A DNA stretch of 64,000 nucleotides from Alphaproteobacteria bacterium (GTDB lineage: Bacteria > Pseudomonadota > Alphaproteobacteria > UBA9219), in assembly GCA_009779745.1 (NCBI GenBank), contig WRDR01000004.1:3713-67712 (forward strand), in the 5' to 3' direction. The notes under the pieces are model-generated. The model did not search any database, was not told the DNA's origin, and saw only the letters and a list, made by a program, of their open reading frames with translations. Of this stretch, positions 2,418 through 56,461 are shown in pieces. A program made the position numbers and the translations under genes. Numbering within the stretch: position 1 is the first letter of the stretch; each line of letters begins with the position of its first letter.

Positions 2418-5069
2418 CTATTTCTTTTTCTTAGAAGTCTTAGCTGCCGGCTTCTTTCCGGACGCATTCATCTTAGCAGCCTTTGCGTCCAAGAACTCTA
2501 TGGCGTTTTCTAGGGACAGATCTTCCGGATCATAATCCTTAGTAACTGTCGCCATTACTTTGCCCCACTTCACATAAGGACCGAAACGCCCTTTGTTCAA
2601 GGTAATCGGTTTGGAGTCCTTCGGATGCGCGCCCAGCTCTTTTGCAGAAGAACTGGCTCTCCTGCCCTTGGAAGGCTCAGACAACAAAGCAACTGCTCTG
2701 TTGACATCAACAGTCAAAACATCATCTTCCGGAGTCAAACTTCTGTATGCAGAACCCATTTTTACATACTCGCCAAAACGCCCTATATCCGCAGTTATTT
2801 TCTCATTGGTCTCAGGGTGGACTCCAACCTCTCTGGGCAGGGACAAAAGCGAAAGTGCAGTATCAAAGTCAATACTGGTCGGATCCAGTTTTTTCGGCAG
2901 GCTTGTTCTTTTCGGTTTAGGAGCCGCCTCTTTTTTGGTCTTCTTTGCTTTTTTTGGCTTATCTTCTTTCGGCTCTGCAGCAACGGCATCAAGCTGAACA
3001 TAAGCACCGTAAGGACCGACTCTCACGGAAACCATGGCTCCGGTAACAGGGTCAGTCCCAAGCTCTCTTGGAGCCATTTCATCTTTAGAGTCCCCTCCCC
3101 CCTGCACAGCCAAAGGTCTTGTATTCTTGCATTCCGGATAATTGGAACAGCCCAAGAAAGCCCCGAATTTACCCAGCTTCAAACCCATTCTGCCAGTCTT
3201 GCATACCGGACAAAGACGCAAATCTTTTTCCGGCTCACCCTCTTCTTTCGGGAAAAAGTGCTGCTCCAGAACCTTATCCAAAACATCAATAACATCCGAG
3301 ATTTTCAGCTCTTTAGTATCATCAACAGCCTTAGAAAAAGCCTTCCAGAAATCTCTCAATACTTCTTTCCATTTAAGCCGCCCTCCGGAAACATCGTCCA
3401 GCTTTTCTTCGAGGTCAGCAGTAAAATCATACTGTACATACTCTTTGAAAAATTCTTCAAGAAAAACAGTAACTATCCTGCCTCTGTCTTCCGGAACAAA
3501 ACGCTTCTTGTCCAACCGCACATAGTCCCTATCCTGCAGCACTTGCATAATGCTGGCGTAAGTAGAAGGTCTTCCAATGCCAAGCTCTTCCAGTTTCTTC
3601 ACCAGAGATGCTTCCGTGTATCTCGGCGGAGGCTGCGTAAAATGCTGCTCCTGAGTTATTTGCTTAGTCTCTAGCCCGTCCCCTTCCTCCATTTTCGGAA
3701 GTCTGGTATCACCGTACCCGTCATTACCCTTTTGACCGCCTATATCCGCGTCGTCGCTGCCCTCTCTGTAAACCTTGAGCCAGCCGTCAAACACTACGAC
3801 AGAACCTGCTGCCCTAAACATAGCCTTACAGTTTTCCCTGTTCGCACTATTACTGTCTATAATATCCACAGAAACCTGATCGAGAACAACGCTGGTCATC
3901 TGAGACGCAACAGCTTTCTGCCAGATAAGCGTATATAATTCCAACTGTTCCTTATTGAGATACTTTGCTACATATTCAGGCCGCCTGCTTATATCCGTAG
4001 GTCTTATAGCCTCATGCGCTTCTTGAGCATTCTTTGCTTTGTTCTTGTAAATTCTCGGCGAGGACGGCAAATACTGCTGTCCGTAATCTTTTTCTATGAC
4101 TGCCCTGGCACCGGCAATAGCCTCGGAAGACAAATACACTCCGTCCGTTCTCATGTAGGTTATGAGTCCCACAGTATCGCCGCCTATATCCACTCCCTCA
4201 TACAGACCCTGAGCAATCCGCATAGTGCGAGTCGCTCCCAAACCTAATTTCCTCGAAGCCTCTTGCTGTAGTGTAGACGTTGTAAAAGGAGGAGACGGAT
4301 TTCTCTTTGTCTGTTTCCTCTCTATATGAAATACCTTATACGACAATTTGCTGACGCTGTCCAAAGCAGCTTGAGCCTCTTCCTTAGTAGACAGCGTGAA
4401 TTTCTCAAGTTTCTTCCCGTCCAAAATCATAAGATACGAGGGTACTGTTCCTTTTTCCTTAGTAAGAAATTCCCCTTCTATGCTCCAGAACTCTTGAATC
4501 TGAAACTTTTCAATCTCTACTTCTCTATCGCAAATCAGCCGTAAGGCAACAGACTGCACTCTTCCCGCAGATCTGGAGCCCGGAAGTTTCCGCCATAAGA
4601 CTGGCGACAGCGAAAATCCCACCAAATAATCCAACGCTCTTCTTGCCATATACGCATCGACTAAATCGCTGTCTATTTCTCTCGGGTGAGATATGGCTTC
4701 CGTTACTGCCTTTTTCGTAATCTCGTTAAATGATACTCGCTTGATGCTTTTGTTTTTGTCCAAGCCCTTTTCATGCAGAATCTCTTTTATGTGCCATGCT
4801 ATAGCTTCTCCCTCTCTGTCAGGGTCGCTTGCCAGAAAAACAGAAGAAGCAGCTTTGACCGCCTTTGTTATTTCCGATACTGCCTTCTTAGCCTTCTCGT
4901 TGAACTCCCAGTCCATAGCAAAGTCTTCTTCCGGCCGCACAGACCCGTCTTTAGGCAGCAAATCCCGTACATGCCCGTAAGACGACAGAACCGCATAATC
5001 CTTTCCCAGATACTTATTCAGGGTTTTTGCTTTTGCAGGAGATTCAACTATGACAACTTTATCAGACAC
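2418..5069 (-). CDS. topA: DNA topoisomerase I
   Basis: The N-terminus MSDKVVIVESPAKAKTLNKYLGKDYAVLSSYGHVRDL is the TOPRIM signature, at a length of 883 aa. The C-terminus carries a Zn-ribbon (CPVCKTG…CSNYPEC) and a lysine-rich tail. Confidence 0.95.
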   Translation of the reverse strand: MSDKVVIVESPAKAKTLNKYLGKDYAVLSSYGHVRDLLPKDGSVRPEEDFAMDWEFNEKAKKAVSEITKAVKAASSVFLASDPDREGEAIAWHIKEILHEKGLDKNKSIKRVSFNEITKKAVTEAISHPREIDSDLVDAYMARRALDYLVGFSLSPVLWRKLPGSRSAGRVQSVALRLICDREVEIEKFQIQEFWSIEGEFLTKEKGTVPSYLMILDGKKLEKFTLSTKEEAQAALDSVSKLSYKVFHIERKQTKRNPSPPFTTSTLQQEASRKLGLGATRTMRIAQGLYEGVDIGGDTVGLITYMRTDGVYLSSEAIAGARAVIEKDYGQQYLPSSPRIYKNKAKNAQEAHEAIRPTDISRRPEYVAKYLNKEQLELYTLIWQKAVASQMTSVVLDQVSVDIIDSNSANRENCKAMFRAAGSVVVFDGWLKVYREGSDDADIGGQKGNDGYGDTRLPKMEEGDGLETKQITQEQHFTQPPPRYTEASLVKKLEELGIGRPSTYASIMQVLQDRDYVRLDKKRFVPEDRGRIVTVFLEEFFKEYVQYDFTADLEEKLDDVSGGRLKWKEVLRDFWKAFSKAVDDTKELKISDVIDVLDKVLEQHFFPKEEGEPEKDLRLCPVCKTGRMGLKLGKFGAFLGCSNYPECKNTRPLAVQGGGDSKDEMAPRELGTDPVTGAMVSVRVGPYGAYVQLDAVAAEPKEDKPKKAKKTKKEAAPKPKRTSLPKKLDPTSIDFDTALSLLSLPREVGVHPETNEKITADIGRFGEYVKMGSAYRSLTPEDDVLTVDVNRAVALLSEPSKGRRASSSAKELGAHPKDSKPITLNKGRFGPYVKWGKVMATVTKDYDPEDLSLENAIEFLDAKAAKMNASGKKPAAKTSKKKK

Positions 5070-5327
5070 TATTTTTTCCTTTTGTCTTTATGATTTATGC
5101 TATCTTTTATAGGCATACTTACATTAATACAAGAAATCTGTTTGTTTTTGACTTAAATCAAGAATAATCATTTATTGTACAACTAATCTTATTTAATTTT
5201 GGTTAATTAACACTATGCGATTAACATTGGTTTAATGTTTTAGATTAACTTTTAGTTATAATTTGTTGTAATTACTTTCATCTTTTTATGGTACTATATA
5301 ATTATAGATCCTAAAGGGAGAAGTGAT

Positions 5328-6638
5328 ATGACAGCACATAATCCATACATAGTCAGCCTTGTTGCGGATGGTGACGAAAACAAACAGAGTTTCTTAAACT
5401 TAGACATAAGTACTCTGCATATAGATTTTGCCAACCTTAAACCAGAAGAATTTGGATTAAGTCCTGCCGACTTGGACATAAGTCCTTATCTTGTCATATT
5501 CGACAAGAAATATGCGCTTTTGAAACAACTGCCTGATATTGTCAAAACATCAATCGAAGCAAACATTAAGGAGAAGCCAGAATTTGTTCAGGAGATAGAA
5601 TTTGATTCTACTTGCGACACTTTGAATCTAGACGAACTGCAAAAACTGCTCGCATCAGAAAACAGAAAAGACGAGTTACAATCTATACGCGGACTGAAGA
5701 GAATAGATGGAAAAGACAATACTGCCAATATAAAACTGTTCTCATATTTAAGCAGGGAATTGAAAGCAAAAGTATGCGCTGTTGTTGCATTGGAAAAGTA
5801 TTATCCAAACAGTGATGATTATAATAGAGACGATATGATTCACATTCGGGACTATATTGTGCAGAAAGTGGACAATATGGACAAAGCCGAAGTGAGTAGG
5901 CTGAAACCGGATAGCTTTACTAAAGCCGCTACACAAGAAGCAATGTACGAAGAAGCGGAAACTTTTTTTGAGGCTGAGCGAGTTAAAGCAGGTGCTACTC
6001 AAGAGCAACCCGGAGATAAGGAGGAACTAAGCAGTTTCTATTTGAACGGCACGGAATATAAATTTTATAATCTATTGACAGAAAACGCTCTTAAGTACGA
6101 AGGCGATAAAATGAATCATTGTGTTGGTGGGTATTGGTCTAAGGTGGAAACGAAGGAAGTAAGAATTATATCGCTTCGTGATGACAAGAACGAGCCACGC
6201 GCAACATTGGAAATTGATACTAAGACAAATACCATAATCCAGATTCAAGGCAGAAAAAACAAAAACATCGACGAAAAATATCATCAGATGATTCTTGATT
6301 TTGTTTCTGAGCCTAAGTGGGAGATTGAGGTGAATGATAGATTTTTCGAAAAAATCCCAGCGGTTCGTTTGAAAGATGGTAAGATAAAATTGTGGACTGA
6401 TCTCGATATAGAAGATGCACGCAATGGCAACTTCACACGAGATTATGGTAATTCTTCTATGCACACAGAACAACGAAAAAATGTAAACACTATCGTCGCA
6501 TTAGGAACTGACGATGATAAGTGGTTTCTCAACAACACCTTGATCCTAAATAACATAACACAAAAGTGGTTTGAGTTGTTGCCGGGTTCCCAAATAGCTG
6601 CAAAAAAAACACCTTTTAACCATACACATAGACGGTAA
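5328..6638 (+). CDS. PcfJ-like protein (mobile-element associated), probably the 5' part of a frameshifted gene
   Basis: The segment LKYEGDKMNHCVGGYWSKVETKEVRIISLRDDKNEPRATLEIDTKTNTIIQIQGRKNKN matches my recollection of the PcfJ-domain core (L..EG..M.HCV..Y…SLR…TLE…Q.RG..N). The stop codon follows an A8 run at 6602-6609, and frame +1 stays open from 6598 into the next ORF. Confidence 0.5.
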   Translation: MTAHNPYIVSLVADGDENKQSFLNLDISTLHIDFANLKPEEFGLSPADLDISPYLVIFDKKYALLKQLPDIVKTSIEANIKEKPEFVQEIEFDSTCDTLNLDELQKLLASENRKDELQSIRGLKRIDGKDNTANIKLFSYLSRELKAKVCAVVALEKYYPNSDDYNRDDMIHIRDYIVQKVDNMDKAEVSRLKPDSFTKAATQEAMYEEAETFFEAERVKAGATQEQPGDKEELSSFYLNGTEYKFYNLLTENALKYEGDKMNHCVGGYWSKVETKEVRIISLRDDKNEPRATLEIDTKTNTIIQIQGRKNKNIDEKYHQMILDFVSEPKWEIEVNDRFFEKIPAVRLKDGKIKLWTDLDIEDARNGNFTRDYGNSSMHTEQRKNVNTIVALGTDDDKWFLNNTLILNNITQKWFELLPGSQIAAKKTPFNHTHRR

Positions 6639-6738
6639 AACAGATCTTAATAAAGATATTGTTGACGCAATCATATGCAGCAATATAGACGAGCTTATAA
6701 TAAACGGGGATTATAATAATGCACACGACCAAAACAGC

Positions 6739-7317
6739 ATGCCTATAATACATGCAGAGGATACTATAAATACACTCAAGGAATGTGAACGTTTGATCAG
6801 GCAATCAAAAGATCTTGTCCGTGTTACGATAGGCGGTGTCAATAGTGAACAGACATATCATCTTGTGCAAGCGATCGTAGAGAATCCTTCAATAAAAAAT
6901 TTCAAGGCATACAAAATACTGACAGAGGCTGCTATAAATTTAGTTGCTAAAAGTAATAATATAACTACTTTTTCAACTTGCTCAGAAGTCTACAAAGGCC
7001 GTTCCCGCCACTACTCTGAAGAAATAATTAGCGAAAGCATAACGGTCATTCGTACAGCATTGGAAACCGGAGAAAACCATAATTTACATCAAGTGTTTTT
7101 TCAACATAGTCCGATTCCAGAACTGGAACCTCTGCTTGCAGACAACAGACAAAAAGCAACCCGAGTTGTATTTGCAGATGTTTCCGAGACAGAGCATAAA
7201 ATAGAGCCTGAGCAGCCGGATGGAAAGCTTCTGTTACACAATATGGCAATTTGTCCCCTCCAGACGACACGTCCACAAACGACAAATCGTCCCTCGCTAA
7301 CTTGTTATGTTATATAG
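6739..7317 (+). CDS. Hypothetical protein; likely the 3' part of the same PcfJ-like gene, separated by a frameshift
   Basis: The reading frame is open upstream to 6598 (LQKKHLLTIHIDGKTDLNKDIVDAIICSNIDELIINGDYNNAHDQNSMPIIHAED…). A 1-nt contraction of the A8 run at 6602-6609 would fuse it in frame with 5328-6638. Confidence 0.4.
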   Translation: MPIIHAEDTINTLKECERLIRQSKDLVRVTIGGVNSEQTYHLVQAIVENPSIKNFKAYKILTEAAINLVAKSNNITTFSTCSEVYKGRSRHYSEEIISESITVIRTALETGENHNLHQVFFQHSPIPELEPLLADNRQKATRVVFADVSETEHKIEPEQPDGKLLLHNMAICPLQTTRPQTTNRPSLTCYVI

Positions 7318-7398
7318 ATATTTTTGAATTATCTGTGCTGCCGCAGCATTCTGCAACACCACGATATAAAAAACGCAGGGATTTCCGGTGAGAACAAC

Positions 7399-7595
7399 CC
7401 TTGTCATTCCCGCTCCCTCCCTTGTCATTCCCGCGCAGGCGGGAATAGGGCAAACCTGCTGTAATCAAGCAATCTAGTTAGTACTATAACAACATAATAT
7501 TAAAAGAAAAACTCTATTCAAACGCCTCACTAATAAACTTACATTTTGTACCAACCTTGCCCACTCCCGCCTGCGCGGGAGTGACAATAGGGGGC
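7399..7595. repeat. MITE-like element: GC-rich inverted repeats with ATTCCC…GGGAAT stems flanking a ~100-bp AT-rich core
   Basis: The left arm is cccttgtcattcccgc(tccctcccttgtcattccc)gcgcaggcgggaataggg at 7399-7450. The right arm is cccactcccgcctgcgcgggagtgacaatagggg at 7560-7595, in inverted orientation. The left arm contains the perfect palindrome attcccgcgcaggcgggaat. The element sits in an otherwise AT-rich spacer. Confidence 0.6.
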
Positions 7596-7659
7596 TTGGA
7601 AATAACAACCGGAGGGACAGCAACCATCGCACCAACTCCTAACTCCACACTTCACACTC

Positions 7660-8787
7660 CTAACCAATCAACACCACCCTATTGCCCGTAACCCTCTGAG
7701 CTATGCCGGACAGCTCCAGTTCCGTAATCACCATAAACACAACATTTATCGGCAATGCACAGTCTCTGCCCAGTTCGTCAATATCAACCGGCGAGTAACT
7801 CATTTTAGACAATATCACCTCTCTGGCTTTAAGAACCGTATCATCATCAACACTTTCTATAATTGAAGGAATACTATCATCTTCAAAGAAACTCTCATTC
7901 CTCTGAAACAAATCAAAAGGTTTAGACTGAAGCCCTACTATAATATCCTGAACGCCTTCAGTAATATGAGCTCCCTGACGTATCAGCTCATTAGTGCCGC
8001 TGGCACGTGGATCTCGCGGAAACCCAGGCACTGCAAACACTTCTCTTCCCTGTTCCAACGCCTTGTTCGCAGTTATAAGAGAGCCTGATTTCCTGTTAGC
8101 CTCTACAACCGCGACTCCAAGACTTAAGCCTGAGATTATTCTGTTTCTTCTGGGAAAGGAGCTTTTAATAGGCTCTGTTCCCAAAGGTATCTCGGACACA
8201 ACACAGCCCTTAGTCTTCATAACTTCATACAGTTTATTATTAGACGCAGGATACACAACATCTACGCCTCCGGCAAAAACAGCTATAGTTCCGGTCTCTA
8301 TACTCGCCTCATGCACCGCAGTGTCAATACCCATAGCAAAGCCTGAAACCGTAACAAATTTGTGCTTGCCCAAATCGCTTGCCAGCGTCTTTGCCATTCC
8401 GATTCCATTGGTAGACGCATGTCTGGTTCCGACAATCGCCACACATTTTCTATGTAAAAGCTCTTCATTTCCCAGCACATATATAACAGGCGGAGCATCT
8501 TCCGTGTTATACAGCATTTCCGGATAGTCCTCATCGCACAACGGTATGCAGCGTCCGCCAATAGCTTTCAGCTTCTTTAGTTCCTCTATAACAGATTGTT
8601 CAGACGGAATTTTCAGAGGCTTTTGCAAACCGCGCCTTTCGAATGAAGGCAAAGCCTTAAATACAGAATCTGCTGTTTTGAATTTATTAATAAGATTGCA
8701 AAAAGTTATAGGACCTATTCTTTCTGTTCCGGCAAGCCTTATCCAATTTATCAGTTCCGAATCAGTCAGCTTTTGCTTTTGCATCAT
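7660..8787 (-). CDS. dprA: DNA processing protein DprA (Smf)
   Basis: The protein is 375 aa. The Rossmann-like DprA core is present (VAIVGTRHASTNG…VSGFAMGIDTAVHEASIETGTIAVFAGGVDVVYPASN). It lies upstream of topA on the same strand, the classic dprA-topA arrangement. Confidence 0.9.
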   Translation of the reverse strand: MMQKQKLTDSELINWIRLAGTERIGPITFCNLINKFKTADSVFKALPSFERRGLQKPLKIPSEQSVIEELKKLKAIGGRCIPLCDEDYPEMLYNTEDAPPVIYVLGNEELLHRKCVAIVGTRHASTNGIGMAKTLASDLGKHKFVTVSGFAMGIDTAVHEASIETGTIAVFAGGVDVVYPASNNKLYEVMKTKGCVVSEIPLGTEPIKSSFPRRNRIISGLSLGVAVVEANRKSGSLITANKALEQGREVFAVPGFPRDPRASGTNELIRQGAHITEGVQDIIVGLQSKPFDLFQRNESFFEDDSIPSIIESVDDDTVLKAREVILSKMSYSPVDIDELGRDCALPINVVFMVITELELSGIAQRVTGNRVVLIG

Positions 8788-9392
8788 ATTTTGATCCTTG
8801 GCTCAGTACCTTTCAAAAGCCTTCCTATGTTTCCTTTGTGCTTAAAGAAAATCAAAATAATCAACACAATAGATAAAGGTATTACTTCTATCCTGTCAAA
8901 TAACCATAAGCCTATAGGAATTAAAACAGAAACTAAAAGCGTAGCAAGCGAAGAAAGTCTGGTAATATAAGCTATAGGAATCCACAGCACCATAGTAGCA
9001 AGCGCAGTATACGGCGATAAAACCGCAAGCACGCCTATACCGGTCGCAACTCCTTTTCCTCCCTTGAATCCGAGCCACACCGGAAACATATGCCCCAAAA
9101 CAGCCGCAAGAGGCACGACAAATAAAATAAAAACATCACCCCAATCACTTAGCACATCTCCTAAAAGCAAAACAGAAAAACAAACGGCAGCCGCTCCTTT
9201 AAAAGCATCGCACAAAAGAGTTAATACTGCCAACGACTTATTGCCTGTTCTTAAAACATTGGTTGTACCGATATTTCCGGAACCTATCTTTCGAATGTCT
9301 CCATACCCAAACATCTTAGTTAGTATAAGCCCGAAAGGAATGCTGCCCAAAAGATACGCAGCAACAGTAACTATGGCAAAATCCATTCTCAA
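8784..9392 (-). CDS. plsY: Glycerol-3-phosphate acyltransferase PlsY
   Basis: The N-terminus AIVTVAAYLLGSIPFGLILTKMFGYGDIRKIGSGNIGTTNVLR is the PlsY signature. The protein is 202 aa and a membrane protein. Confidence 0.9.
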   Translation of the reverse strand: MRMDFAIVTVAAYLLGSIPFGLILTKMFGYGDIRKIGSGNIGTTNVLRTGNKSLAVLTLLCDAFKGAAAVCFSVLLLGDVLSDWGDVFILFVVPLAAVLGHMFPVWLGFKGGKGVATGIGVLAVLSPYTALATMVLWIPIAYITRLSSLATLLVSVLIPIGLWLFDRIEVIPLSIVLIILIFFKHKGNIGRLLKGTEPRIKI

Positions 9393-10354
9393 TTTTCCAT
9401 TCCTAACAAAGCGTGCAAAACAGCCATTCTCATCGCAACGCCGTTTTCTACCTGCTTGAGAATCATACTGTACTTCTCATCGTCAATAAGACTGCTAGAT
9501 ATTTCAACATCTCTGTTTACCGGTCCCGGGTGCAGAACTATCACGTCCTCTTTTGCAGCCTTAATATTCTCGTGATTCAGCCTGTATTCAAGAACATAAG
9601 AGTTAAGTTTTTGTCCGAAATCAAAGGCATCTGCTTTGTCTGAACGTATAAGCGTTCTTTCATTCTGGACTCTAAGCGTGATGATAACATCAGCCTCTCT
9701 TATGCCCTCTTTGAGGTCGTTGTAAATCTTCACGCCTATCTCTTCATAATAATCCTGAGAGATGAAATAGTCCGGAGCAACTATAGATATATCCGTTCCG
9801 AATTTCTGTAATAGCCGTATATTGGAACGGGCAACTCTGCTTCTGGCAACGTCTCCGCATATGGCGACTTTTAGTCCGGAAAGCGTGCCCTTGCGCTGAA
9901 AAATGGTCATAGCGTCCAAGAGAGCCTGCGTAGGGTGAAAGCTGATACCTGCCCCTGCGCTTATGACGTGAGCTTTCATATTGCCGGCAATAGTAGAAGG
10001 CAGAGCTTCCTCCGTGCATCTTATAACCAGAGCGTCTATGAGCATAGCGTCCAGAGTGGCGGCAGTATCAAGCATAGTCTCTCCTTTAGAGACAGAGCTT
10101 TGAGCAACCGGAATATTGACAACGTCCATTCCGAGTCTTTTGGCAGCTATCTCAAAAGAAGTACGAGTTCTGGTGGAGCTTTCCATGAAGAAATTGACTA
10201 CGGTTTTCCCGCAGTGATTATATATCTTCTTTTCAGACTGACGGTTTTGGACAGAGAAGTTATTAGCGAGCTCAATAAGCTCCGTTATTCCGGACGGAGA
10301 CAAATCAAAAACGTCAAGCAAGTCCTTAGTTTTAAAGATGTTTTGAATGGGCAT
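9389..10354 (-). CDS. pyrB: Aspartate carbamoyltransferase catalytic subunit
   Basis: The STRTRTSFEIAAKRLG carbamoyl-phosphate-binding motif and an HPGPVNRDVEI-like motif are present. The protein is 321 aa. Confidence 0.9.
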   Translation of the reverse strand: MPIQNIFKTKDLLDVFDLSPSGITELIELANNFSVQNRQSEKKIYNHCGKTVVNFFMESSTRTRTSFEIAAKRLGMDVVNIPVAQSSVSKGETMLDTAATLDAMLIDALVIRCTEEALPSTIAGNMKAHVISAGAGISFHPTQALLDAMTIFQRKGTLSGLKVAICGDVARSRVARSNIRLLQKFGTDISIVAPDYFISQDYYEEIGVKIYNDLKEGIREADVIITLRVQNERTLIRSDKADAFDFGQKLNSYVLEYRLNHENIKAAKEDVIVLHPGPVNRDVEISSSLIDDEKYSMILKQVENGVAMRMAVLHALLGMEN

Positions 10355-10441: not shown

Positions 10442-11395
10442 ATGTCTAAATCAAAAAATTTTTTAATAGAACCTGCTGATGATGATATAAGATTGGATCG
10501 CTGGTTTAAAAGGCATGTTCCGGATCTGACTAACGGGCAGGTACAGAAACTGATACGTACCGGACAAATACGCATTGACGGACAACGAGCTTCCGCATCG
10601 CAGCATATCAAAGCAGGACAAGAACTAAGGCTGCCTCCGCTGGCAGCCGGCATGACGGAGAGTCATAGTGATGAGAACGCTTACAAACCTTCCTTCACGC
10701 ATAAAAAAAACGATATAAGAAAAATGACGATTTTTGAAGATGATTACGTGCTGGTTTTAAATAAGCCTCACGGTCTTGCAGTACAAGGCGGTACCGGAAT
10801 CAAAAAAAGCATAGACGATATGCTGGAGGCACTGACAGACGCAAAACAAGGCAAGCCTAAATTAGTTCATCGTCTGGACAGAGACACCAGCGGAATACTT
10901 GTAATAGCTAAAAACATACAATCCGCAATGAGTCTGACAAAAGCGTTCAGACAGAAAAACACTGAAAAAACATATTGGGGAATAACTATCGGCGTTCCGG
11001 GTATTTCAGAAGGAATCATAGACGCTCCTTTGGCGAAAACAGGAGAAAAATCTATGATTTCCGACTCGGAACCGAACGCTAAAAACGCAGTAACTCAGTA
11101 CAGAATCATTGATAAGGCAAAAAAACTAGCCGCATTTGTTGAAATGCAGCCTTTGACAGGCAGAACTCATCAGCTTCGCGTGCACATGGCGAGTCTTGGC
11201 ACTCCTCTGCTCGGAGACAGGCTGTATGCCCCGCATGAACATGCTTTATCCGCATTAAAAGATTCTATTCCAACAGGTACTCTGCACCTCCATGCACGCA
11301 AAATCATAATCCCCCACCCGCACAAAGGTCTCATAGATGTTACAGCCCCTCTAAGCAGTGATATGGCGAAAACGTTTAAGTGGTTTGGGTTTTAA
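10442..11395 (+). CDS. RluA-family 23S rRNA pseudouridine synthase (RluC/RluD-like)
   Basis: The N-terminus has an S4-like domain (RLDRWFKRHVPDLTNGQVQKLIRTGQIRIDGQ). The catalytic motif HRLDRDTSGILVIAKN is present. Confidence 0.85.
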   Translation: MSKSKNFLIEPADDDIRLDRWFKRHVPDLTNGQVQKLIRTGQIRIDGQRASASQHIKAGQELRLPPLAAGMTESHSDENAYKPSFTHKKNDIRKMTIFEDDYVLVLNKPHGLAVQGGTGIKKSIDDMLEALTDAKQGKPKLVHRLDRDTSGILVIAKNIQSAMSLTKAFRQKNTEKTYWGITIGVPGISEGIIDAPLAKTGEKSMISDSEPNAKNAVTQYRIIDKAKKLAAFVEMQPLTGRTHQLRVHMASLGTPLLGDRLYAPHEHALSALKDSIPTGTLHLHARKIIIPHPHKGLIDVTAPLSSDMAKTFKWFGF

Positions 11396-13492: not shown

Positions 13493-13945
13493 ATGTTCTC
13501 CTATAAAGAAAAGAAAACTCTCCCCTACTCTAACACAGAGCTGTTCTCTATAGTCGCGGATATAGAACGCTATCCTGAATTTCTGCCTTGGTGCAAGAGC
13601 GTAGACATTATCCAAAAAGAAAAAGATTCCGTCCTGTCAAAAGTGACCATAGGAAACAGCCTCATAGAGGGCTCTTATGTATGCAGAGTGAAATTCGTAA
13701 AAGGAAAAAGCATATACGTAGAATACGTATCCGGGCTGCTTTCTAATCTCCGAACAGAGTGGCGATTCAAATCAAAATCAAAAAAATCCACCACTGTGGA
13801 AATAGAGATAGAATTCGAATTTAAATCAAAAATACTAAATAAAGCAATGGCTACCGGACTCGACAGAGTTTCAAAAAAAATCATGTCTGCGTTTGAGGAA
13901 AGGGCGAAAAAAAATCCCTGCCCTCACAAGAAGAGCAGGGATTAG
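13493..13945 (+). CDS. SRPBCC-family protein (RatA/COQ10-like START-domain lipid-binding protein)
   Basis: The segment LPYSNTELFSIVADIERYPEFLPWCKSVDI… is typical of the RatA/YfjG/COQ10 family. The protein is 150 aa. Confidence 0.7.
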   Translation: MFSYKEKKTLPYSNTELFSIVADIERYPEFLPWCKSVDIIQKEKDSVLSKVTIGNSLIEGSYVCRVKFVKGKSIYVEYVSGLLSNLRTEWRFKSKSKKSTTVEIEIEFEFKSKILNKAMATGLDRVSKKIMSAFEERAKKNPCPHKKSRD

Positions 13946-43536: not shown

Positions 43537-44493
43537 ATGTCTCAGATTAATGATTTAAAAAACATCATAGATAATAATAAGGACTTGCACCTTTTGCAAG
43601 AAAAGATAGCTGAAGCCAAAAAAGCCGGAAAGCCCGTTTTGGTGATAGTAGGAGAGGATCATACTATCCCTGTTTCCGCCAACTTGGAAATTTGTATTGC
43701 CAAAATTGCCAAAGACTCGGGCTTTAAGTCAGCTGCTATTGAGTTGAACAAAGAACAACTAAAAATAGCGGAAGAACAGCCCGCTAGTAGGAGAGTGGAA
43801 GTAGGCGCACATTACACTATTCCTGTCCTGAAGGGCATTGGAATAAAATGCACTCCTATGGATTCGTCCTTAAATAGAGATACGGCGAATAGAGAAAACC
43901 ATATGAGCAACGTAATATCGAACATTAATGAAGATGCAATATGTATCACTGGTATGTTGCATGTACCTTATTTAGCCGAGAAACTGAAAGAAAAATTCAC
44001 TGTTGTGTCTGTTTTGCTTCCGTCTCCAAAACTTGAGATGAATATGTCAGGAGAAGATACTGAGAGGAAAAATTGGCTATTAGATAAAAGAAATGATTTA
44101 TTGCGCTTTAGTCCAGCCCCCCCCCCCCTCAATATACCGAAGTATGGTGCTATTGCACAGGCAATTTTTGATGAACAATCTCTCTCCAAAATCGCAGAGG
44201 CACTTAATTTTGAAGAGCATATAAGGAACTTGCCCGACAGAGCAAAATTAGATAAACTCGACAAGCATATACAAGAGAGTTACTTCAAAATCATTCAAAG
44301 TGTGGTTGGAGGAACAGCTCCTGATACACAAGAGCCTACGAGAATGGTTTCGCCATTAACAGGCTTTCGAAGTGCGGGAAGAAATTTGGTGTCCATAAAT
44401 TTGGATAAACCAAAACATCCTGATGAAAGCAAAAAATTAGATAAGGAAATGTATGAGCAAATGCTGAAGCTTTGCGATACCTTGAAGAAGTAA
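43537..44493 (+). CDS. Hypothetical protein with an in-frame poly-C(12) tract; weak Tiki/TraB/ChaN-like GxxH…GxxH pattern
   Basis: The protein is 318 aa. A C12 homopolymer at 44117-44128 encodes SPAPPPLN. The possible paired motifs are VLVIVGEDHT and ITGMLHVPYL. No confident homology was found. Confidence 0.45.
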   Translation: MSQINDLKNIIDNNKDLHLLQEKIAEAKKAGKPVLVIVGEDHTIPVSANLEICIAKIAKDSGFKSAAIELNKEQLKIAEEQPASRRVEVGAHYTIPVLKGIGIKCTPMDSSLNRDTANRENHMSNVISNINEDAICITGMLHVPYLAEKLKEKFTVVSVLLPSPKLEMNMSGEDTERKNWLLDKRNDLLRFSPAPPPLNIPKYGAIAQAIFDEQSLSKIAEALNFEEHIRNLPDRAKLDKLDKHIQESYFKIIQSVVGGTAPDTQEPTRMVSPLTGFRSAGRNLVSINLDKPKHPDESKKLDKEMYEQMLKLCDTLKK

Positions 44494-55729: not shown

Positions 55730-56461
55730 TCACATTACCTCTTCCAGCCCGTACAGCAGCGTTTTCTTCCCAACTATATTCTTAGCTGCCAGCCTTATGC
55801 CTGCACTGAAAGAAGACCTGTCCGAAGAATCATGCTCTATCGACAACGTTTGCCCTGTGTCTCCAAAAATCACTTTTTCTTGGGCTATTACTCCTGTTCT
55901 TCTTATCGAGTGAATCCTTACTCCTCTTACTTCTCCTCCACGGAATTCATTAATCTCGCCAAGCTCCCCGGGCACCTGCATAGCCGCCTCTGCCCTGCCC
56001 TCTGCTATCAGCTCCGCAGTCCTTACCGCAGTTCCGGACGGCGCATCCAGCTTTTTCTCATGATGAGATTCTATAATCTCTACGTAAGGCATGTACTTCG
56101 CAGCTTCCTTTGCAAACTTCATTAACAGCACCGCACCTATCGCAAAATTAGGAACGATAATTCCTCCGATTTTTTTTTCATCACATACTTTTCTTAAAGA
56201 CGCAACCTGCTCTCCGGTAAAACCGCTAGTCCCGATTACCGGCTGCGCTCCGGCATTGATAATCTTCAAAAAATTCTCATGCCCCAGCCCTGCAAATGTA
56301 AAGTCTATCACAACCTGCGGTTTATAAGCCTTTATTGCTTCTTCCAGATTATCCTCTTTATCAGTCTGCCCAACCAGCGCAAAATCAGAGTCAGAAGAAA
56401 TAGCTCCGGCAGCCAAAGTCCCCATACGCCCCTTAGCTCCATTTATCAAAACAGAAATCAT
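55730..56461 (-). CDS. dapB: 4-hydroxy-tetrahydrodipicolinate reductase
   Basis: The N-terminus MISVLINGAKGRMGTLAAGAI (NAD(P)-binding) and the C-terminal DapB domain (EIIESHHEKKLDAPSGTA) are present. The protein is 243 aa. Confidence 0.9.
   Translation of the reverse strand: MISVLINGAKGRMGTLAAGAISSDSDFALVGQTDKEDNLEEAIKAYKPQVVIDFTFAGLGHENFLKIINAGAQPVIGTSGFTGEQVASLRKVCDEKKIGGIIVPNFAIGAVLLMKFAKEAAKYMPYVEIIESHHEKKLDAPSGTAVRTAELIAEGRAEAAMQVPGELGEINEFRGGEVRGVRIHSIRRTGVIAQEKVIFGDTGQTLSIEHDSSDRSSFSAGIRLAAKNIVGKKTLLYGLEEVM

Follow-up and report, generated by a model that had tools for sequence, protein, structure and literature searches.

The PcfJ family is named after PcfJ of the Enterococcus faecalis plasmid pCF10. 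The domain was matched in 2,502 cluster representatives, a very large family with invariant polar residues and without a solved structure, and almost nothing on PcfJ function was found in the literature. A tblastn search located the domain on 138 plasmids, including 132 of Enterococcus together with plasmids of Komagataeibacter, Shinella, Sphingopyxis, and Rhizorhabdus. Here, a PcfJ-domain gene is described from a 64-kb stretch of the alphaproteobacterial contig WRDR01000004.1 (the whole stretch analyzed, hereafter the window), in which it lies on the opposite strand between topA and dprA. The locus comprises a PcfJ-domain open reading frame (ORF1), a second frame (ORF2) shifted by one position, and a bridge that is open in the ORF2 frame and reaches back into ORF1 over a run of eight A (A8; Table 1). 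On balance, ORF1 and ORF2 are probably the two parts of one PcfJ-domain gene that suffered a plain and fairly recent frameshift. A first-pass annotation of the window had proposed this frameshift together with an insertion between dprA and topA, and its coordinates for topA, dprA, ORF1, A8, the stop codon, and the +1 frame all hold on direct reading of the sequence.

Membership of ORF1 in the PcfJ family was evident from the profile search that the first-pass annotation had named as a check, which returned a significant match to PF14284 of 54.9 bits (E 1.1e-14, aa 232-322) against a Pfam gathering threshold of 25 bits. Of 20 residues that are invariant or near-invariant in an alignment of 116 sequences, ORF1 retains 19, comprising E258, G259, M262, H264, C265, V266, Y269, I280, S282, L283, R284, D285, P290, T293, E295, Q305, G308, N311, and Y318. 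These are arranged in the motifs E258-G-x2-M-x-H264-C265-V-G-x-Y269, S282-L-R-D285, P290-R291-x-T293-x-E295, and Q305-x2-G308-x2-N311. Codon 291 (6198-6200) encodes Arg where 112 of the 116 aligned sequences carry the His of a P-H-x-T-x-E motif, and this His291 to Arg change could reflect relaxed selection or functional divergence.

AlphaFold2 (AF2) was confident solely for ORF1 aa ~165-372, with a predicted local distance difference test (pLDDT) score >90 in the full-length model and of 87.7 for the isolated core, while its confidence was low for the C-terminal part beyond the core. A Foldseek search of the core model against BFVD identified 30 phage proteins at E<=1e-3 (best E 4.8e-10), mostly named PcfJ-like and 182-1,403 aa in length, and the predicted likeness to these models upheld the family call alongside the profile score and the conserved residues. 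The same model had no match in the PDB at E<=1e-3, where no solved structure for the PcfJ domain was found; the top PDB matches were consistently GNAT acetyltransferases but weak (HAT1 with E 0.012 and a template modeling (TM) score of about 0.3), and the GNAT-like resemblance of the predicted core is a faint lead only. Based on the invariant E, C, S, and T, the near-invariant H, R, D, Q, and N, and this faint GNAT-like fold, the PcfJ core may be read as an enzyme-like module, which in relatives is joined to a variable C-terminal, putative targeting, module.

The extent of homology was mapped by a HMMER search of the conceptual fusion of ORF1 and ORF2 obtained by deleting one A of the run (A7 fusion) against 1.84 billion cluster representatives, and the best 150 of the 2,502 cluster-representative matches at E<=1e-3 were inspected. 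Apart from two self matches, the alignments among these 150 were confined to the core, roughly aa 136-390, with the single exception of the phage protein P0025, whose low-confidence alignment reaches aa 462 of the fusion. ORF1 is composed of an N-terminal ~160 aa without relatives, a region of homology at ~aa 165-390, and a tail (~390-436) without relatives. Alignment of the fusion to PcfJ homologs left the last ~45 ORF1 residues and ORF2 without detectable homologs. Relatives of ORF2 were limited to self matches in a word-indexed search of 5.8 billion proteins and among the best 150 of the 2,502 HMMER matches, and comparison of ORF2 with Pfam, PHROG, NCBIfam, and PADLOC gave no family. The A7 fusion likewise recovered the 436-aa self match only from the 5.8-billion-protein word index.

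A single ancestral gene is favored by codon usage and by the start-less bridge. A TAG at 6595-6597 in the +1 frame is followed by an open frame from 6598 to 7317, and the 38 nt at 6598-6635, which contain A8, are the sole stretch where both frames are open. Conceptual deletion of one A gives a 662-aa product, in agreement with the fusion of roughly 660 aa that the first-pass annotation had expected from a single-A contraction; its junction peptide is …IAAKKHLLTIHIDGK…, also given as …QIAAKKHLLTIHIDGK…. Under a codon model derived from 26 long ORFs in the window, the bridge at 6610-6738 (43 codons) scored +0.195 per codon in the ORF2 frame vs. -1.05 and -1.55 in the other frames. This margin of 1.24 was higher than in 92% of true in-frame windows, in 99.98% of shuffles, and in each of the 638 off-frame windows of real genes. 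The preferred frame changed from 0 to +1 in the scoring interval 6588-6677 even when stop codons counted as neutral. Neither ATG, GTG, or TTG nor a Shine-Dalgarno sequence occurs in the bridge (6598-6738), and no Shine-Dalgarno sequence precedes the ORF2 ATG at 6739. The resulting start-less leader of 47 codons ranks third in length among 50 ORFs (median 9.5 codons), and 2.6% of shuffles of a 141-nt segment with the bridge composition remain open in a given frame. ORF2 itself scored +0.055 per codon vs. -0.76 and -0.67 off frame, and a 717-nt frame of this composition was open in 0 of 20,000 shuffles.

The switch of preferred frame at A8, together with a coding-like bridge that lacks a start codon and a Shine-Dalgarno sequence, suggests that translation once ran from ORF1 into the ORF2 frame. 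As the downstream frame is still open and coding-like, the break would be recent or the distal part would occasionally be expressed. The frameshift at A8 put forward in the first-pass annotation was supported indirectly, by the codon-usage switch and the start-less bridge, and gained nothing from homology, as no match listed aligned past ~aa 390 other than the low-confidence P0025 alignment. According to the reading favored here, a horizontally acquired gene of a phage and plasmid family (PF14284) would occupy, on the opposite strand, the dprA-topA gap that is usually short. We infer that its ancestral state was a single gene of about 662 codons and that a one-base frame change within 6598-6635, most probably at A8 (6602-6609; A7 to A8), altered it. 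Translation would now stop at codon 436, such that the truncated product would retain the whole conserved PcfJ core and would have lost the C-terminal ~226 residues (bridge plus ORF2), where relatives carry a variable, often leucine-rich-repeat (LRR), module. ORF2 would then belong to the C-terminal part of the PcfJ-domain gene, displaced from its frame.

Comparative analysis of the dprA-topA spacing was based on a profile scan of genome contigs with a TopA alignment (window plus E. coli), which yielded 80 proteobacterial loci; an earlier scan of genome contigs with DprA had returned no relatives. A co-oriented dprA was located directly upstream of topA in 52 of the 80 loci, with an approximate gap of <=100 bp in 16, 100-750 bp in 26, and >1.2 kb in 10. 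The most TopA-similar loci keeping dprA (58-61% identity) had gaps of 39-73 bp and belonged to Nitrospirillum, a Magnetospirillum metagenome-assembled genome (MAG), and two further MAGs, of which one bears the label Solirubrobacterales; across the closest TopA relatives, the gap spanned 39-79 bp. A PcfJ homolog was present in the gap in 0 of the 52 loci. As the gap is short in most of these loci and PcfJ is found in none, the comparison supports 5070-7659 as a lineage-specific insertion into a conserved dprA>topA pair. This is in line with the insertion proposed in the first-pass annotation, with 42 of 52 gaps <750 bp among relatives that are distant (TopA identity <=61%).

The larger gaps of 1.2-4.3 kb (loci L014, L027, L046, L047, L065, L076, L078, L082, L083, and L087) included Bradyrhizobium (3.4-4.3 kb), Caulobacter (1.9 kb), Xanthomonadales (3.0-3.5 kb), and a Magnetospirillum MAG (1.4 kb), with unrelated genes inside. 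The Xanthomonadales gap contained one ORF with the conserved N-terminus MKESILDVLLYLFEHYF, and several ORFs of 100-350 aa were found in the Bradyrhizobium and Caulobacter gaps. Judged by gene content, lineage-specific genes seem to have entered the dprA-topA gap more than once in Proteobacteria, making it a recurrent insertion point.

Several results weigh against a frameshift of one inserted gene. The ORF2 codon score of 0.055 is weaker than the 0.186 of ORF1, no homolog covers ORF2 or the junction (best 150 of the 2,502 HMMER matches and word-index search), no A7 allele was found among about 15 billion proteins, and the 436-aa protein is the sole member of its cluster. The C-terminal part is unlike the LRR repeats of relatives and was modeled with low AF2 confidence, and the insertion is dated solely against relatives with a TopA identity of <=61%. 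Intact housekeeping genes of the window also contain in-frame runs of A8 or T9 (10703-10710, 13873-13880, 13907-13914, and 56170-56178; in genes for a rluD-like pseudouridine synthase, a Polyketide_cyc protein, and dapB), such that the A8 run alone is not diagnostic. An alternative that we consider unlikely is that the locus contains two independent genes, with a 436-aa PcfJ protein ending at 6638 followed by a separate gene of 174-192 aa and a coincidental overlap at A8. This is how the locus was called by the ENA, JGI, NCBI, and Logan gene callers, and it would be consistent with the many family members of about 220-450 aa, with the C-terminal position of the PcfJ domain in PHROG families, and with the lack of homology between ORF2 and PcfJ protein C-termini among the matches listed. 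A weak AAGGA 10 nt before the TTG at 6793 could serve such a second gene, but the 43 codons before the ORF2 ATG are strongly coding in the ORF2 frame without a canonical start, the ATG at 6739 has no Shine-Dalgarno sequence, and a leader open back into ORF1 would arise by chance in only about 2.6% of cases.

A further alternative, quite unlikely in our view, retains the single gene and treats A8 as a maintained slippage site. Slippage of RNA polymerase or during replication, or a +1 ribosomal shift on AAA-AAA-A, would then produce mostly the 436-aa core and, as a small or switchable share, a 662-aa form with a lineage-specific C-terminal module. In AT-rich endosymbionts, transcriptional slippage is documented to rescue poly(A) frameshifts, and documented slippage sites usually have >=9 A or T. 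The junction coincides with the sole long homopolymer of the gene and the distal 239 codons are fully open and weakly coding-like, but the run has only eight A, at the short end for such sites, and the next 0-frame codon is an ordinary ACA instead of a stop or obvious pause codon as at +1 sites. A -1 shift terminates after three codons, no significant RNA structure was predicted (6590-6720 fold z -1.56, with 11 of 200 shuffles folding as well), and no orthologs were found in the searched collections to show conservation. Fixation of the A8 allele in seven of seven assemblies would fit a maintained site, but these assemblies are clonal (100% identical over 2.6 kb) and so say little. If slippage were true, A8 would act as an expression ratio-setter or phase-variable switch, and the locus would represent a homopolymer-controlled isoform or phase switch in a domesticated phage or plasmid gene of a host-associated alphaproteobacterium. 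The in-frame A8/T9 runs of intact genes offer useful internal controls when slippage is estimated from reads.

Some sequencing platforms are prone to errors at homopolymers, and the extra A might be a sequencing or assembly error in an intact A7 gene. This is highly improbable, as A8 was present in seven of seven assemblies, which cover at least six samples, were produced by at least three pipelines (MEGAHIT-style k141 contigs, JGI, and Logan), and are 100% identical to the window over 5070-7660. The 436-aa protein was identified on contigs from ENA (two samples), JGI 3300010882, and three Logan assemblies; the JGI 3300010882 contig corresponds to NCBI GCA_009779165.1 WREV01000056.1, designated "MAG: Alphaproteobacteria bacterium". 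The agreement on A8 between different pipelines argues against an assembly artefact. A plain frameshift of a single PcfJ-domain gene is retained as the probable reading, and for the public "hypothetical" and "PcfJ domain-containing" genes of this MAG, the best annotation is a single gene with a frameshift. The PcfJ locus matters little beyond annotation and would merit experimental attention only if A8 were a working slippage switch.

The GC content of the insert (0.378) was lower than that of topA (0.464), dprA (0.438), and the window (0.431), and the ORF1 codon score of 0.186 per codon was under the minimum of the 26 resident genes (mean 0.283, sd 0.039, minimum 0.21). The closest homologs with contig context (P0007 and P0152) were surrounded by small unannotated ORFs and genes for DnaB, Acb2/Tad1-like, HNH, and DNA methylase proteins, a context that is phage-like by its gene content. 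Neither an integrase nor a transposase was identified among the ORFs of the insert, and no convincing target-site duplication, terminal repeats, or flanking direct repeats were found. A DNA-level search of phage and plasmid records with the insert gave no match, as did an Rfam search of 4900-7900. The description that fits the insert best is a small islet acquired horizontally, not a recognisable mobile element. On the phage-like contig of P0007 (locus L092, 8001-10977), this 439-aa protein with PcfJ and LRR is followed by a 555-aa ORF without a Pfam family, which overlaps the P0007 end by 11 nt and has no similarity to ORF2.

The LRR module of the relatives was evident from a match of the family profile to the PDB LRR protein 8z5u (E 5e-11). 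ORF2 was also considered as a degenerate version of this module and rejected: a repeat hidden Markov model built from the C-terminal LPxNLxVxGxLxL repeats of relatives scored the relatives at up to 61 bits and the C-terminal part of the window protein no better than shuffles.

A REPIN-like pair of repetitive extragenic palindromic (REP) hairpins is located next to dprA. In Neisseria, the REP master sequence ATTCCCGCGCAGGCGGGAATC forms REPINs, with 241 copies in N. meningitidis 2594, and an inverted REP pair <130 bp apart is the operational REPIN criterion (bioRxiv 10.1101/2021.07.10.451892). The first hairpin of the window is identical to this master sequence at 20 of 21 bases, and in the second, the stem is preserved by a compensatory T-A to C-G change. 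The inverted-repeat arms (7401-7449 and 7560-7608) are 78% complementary, and a 16-nt half-REP is duplicated (7398-7413 and 7419-7434). Similar to a Neisseria REPIN, the two copies are in opposite orientation, ~115 nt apart and so within the distance of the operational criterion, and extragenic between convergent genes. In contrast to the Neisseria elements, there is one pair in 64 kb, no RAYT homolog in the window, and an alphaproteobacterial host. A tblastn search with E. coli RayT found none in the 64-kb window, and the RAYT search of REP-bearing loci was also negative.

The 23-mer GTCAYTCCCGCGCAGGCGGGART had at least 120 exact matches in metagenome contigs with a GC of 0.36-0.70 (loci L093-L212), conservation around it was confined to about 29 nt, and plus/minus pairs 57-178 nt apart occurred in 8 of the 13 multi-copy loci. 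The presence of a near-identical ~29-nt hairpin across genomes of such different GC is remarkable. The first-pass annotation had taken the element for a miniature inverted-repeat transposable element (MITE)-like marker of the dprA-proximal insert edge, an interpretation that is abandoned here. It consists of two inverted copies of a cosmopolitan REP hairpin, lies between convergent genes, and says nothing on the insert boundary.

The topA-dprA gap contains just ORF1 and ORF2, both on the + strand. The topA product contains Topoisom_bac (Pfam E 8.7e-123), Toprim, a zinc ribbon, and C-terminal repeats, and shares 41% identity with E. coli TopA. The promoters of topA and ORF1 would both lie inside the divergent region 5070-5327. 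Since topA is cut off from dprA by 2.6 kb of opposite-strand genes, its transcription would start in this new AT-rich 258 bp or depend on antisense read-through. Elsewhere in the window, a gene for a TPR-repeat protein (624-2390, +) adjoins topA, with public records differing in its start (588 aa vs. 559 aa). A C12 homopolymer at 44117-44128, inside a 318-aa ORF (43537-44493, +) without a Pfam or NCBIfam family in this genome of 43% GC, is a candidate phase-variable tract.

Table 1. Features of the topA-dprA region in window coordinates (aa, amino acids).
Feature	Position	Strand	Details
topA, DNA topoisomerase I	2418-5069	-	883 aa, GTG start
topA-dprA gap	5070-7659	.	2,590 bp
Divergent intergenic region topA/ORF1	5070-5327	.	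258 bp, AT-rich, GC 0.225
ORF1 Shine-Dalgarno sequence GGGAG	5316-5320	+	7 nt before ATG
ORF1, PcfJ-domain protein	5328-6638	+	436 aa; C-terminal peptide …KTPFNHTHRR
Pfam PcfJ match (PF14284)	6021-6293	+	ORF1 aa 232-322
Bridge	6598-6738	+	47 codons open in the ORF2 frame; codon usage coding-like
A8 homopolymer	6602-6609	+	ORF1 frame reads GCA AAA AAA ACA
ORF1 stop codon TAA	6636-6638	+	begins 27 nt past the last A of A8
ORF2	6739-7317	+	192 aa from the first ATG; NCBI: 174 aa from TTG 6793
REPIN-like inverted pair of REP hairpins	7398-7608	.	between ORF2 and dprA, whose 3' ends converge
First hairpin	7427-7446	+	8-bp stem; ATTCCCGC-GCAG-GCGGGAAT
Second hairpin	7563-7582	-	8-bp stem; as read on +: ACTCCCGC-CTGC-GCGGGAGT
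dprA	7660-8787	-	375 aa; DNA_processg_A (Pfam E 4.7e-71), DprA_N, DprA_WH
plsY	8784-9392	-	upstream of dprA, same strand
pyrB	9389-10354	-	upstream of dprA and plsY, same strand

Compared with the PcfJ-like proteins of plasmids and tailed phages, ORF1 has the same domain, the same E-G-x2-M-x-H-C-V-G-x-Y, S-L-R-D, P-H-x-T-x-E, and Q-x2-G-x2-N motifs, and the same predicted core fold. It differs in being chromosomal, between housekeeping genes, and interrupted in its frame, in carrying Arg at the near-invariant His291, and in having no relatives for its N-terminal ~160 aa or past ~aa 390. The phage PcfJ plus LRR proteins (P0007, P0023, P0025, and P0013) share the helical N-terminal segment, the PcfJ core, and a linker of ~40-60 residues with it, at a best identity of 44-51% to ORF1 over the core; after the core they continue into LPxNLxVxGxLxL repeats, whereas the C-terminal part in the window does not match that profile. 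Relative to the rescued poly(A) frameshifts of AT-rich endosymbionts, the run here has just eight A and is known from the assemblies of one clone. The locus resembles homopolymer frameshift pseudogenes in the same frame break at an A run, in an AT-leaning genome, and in a downstream frame that is open.

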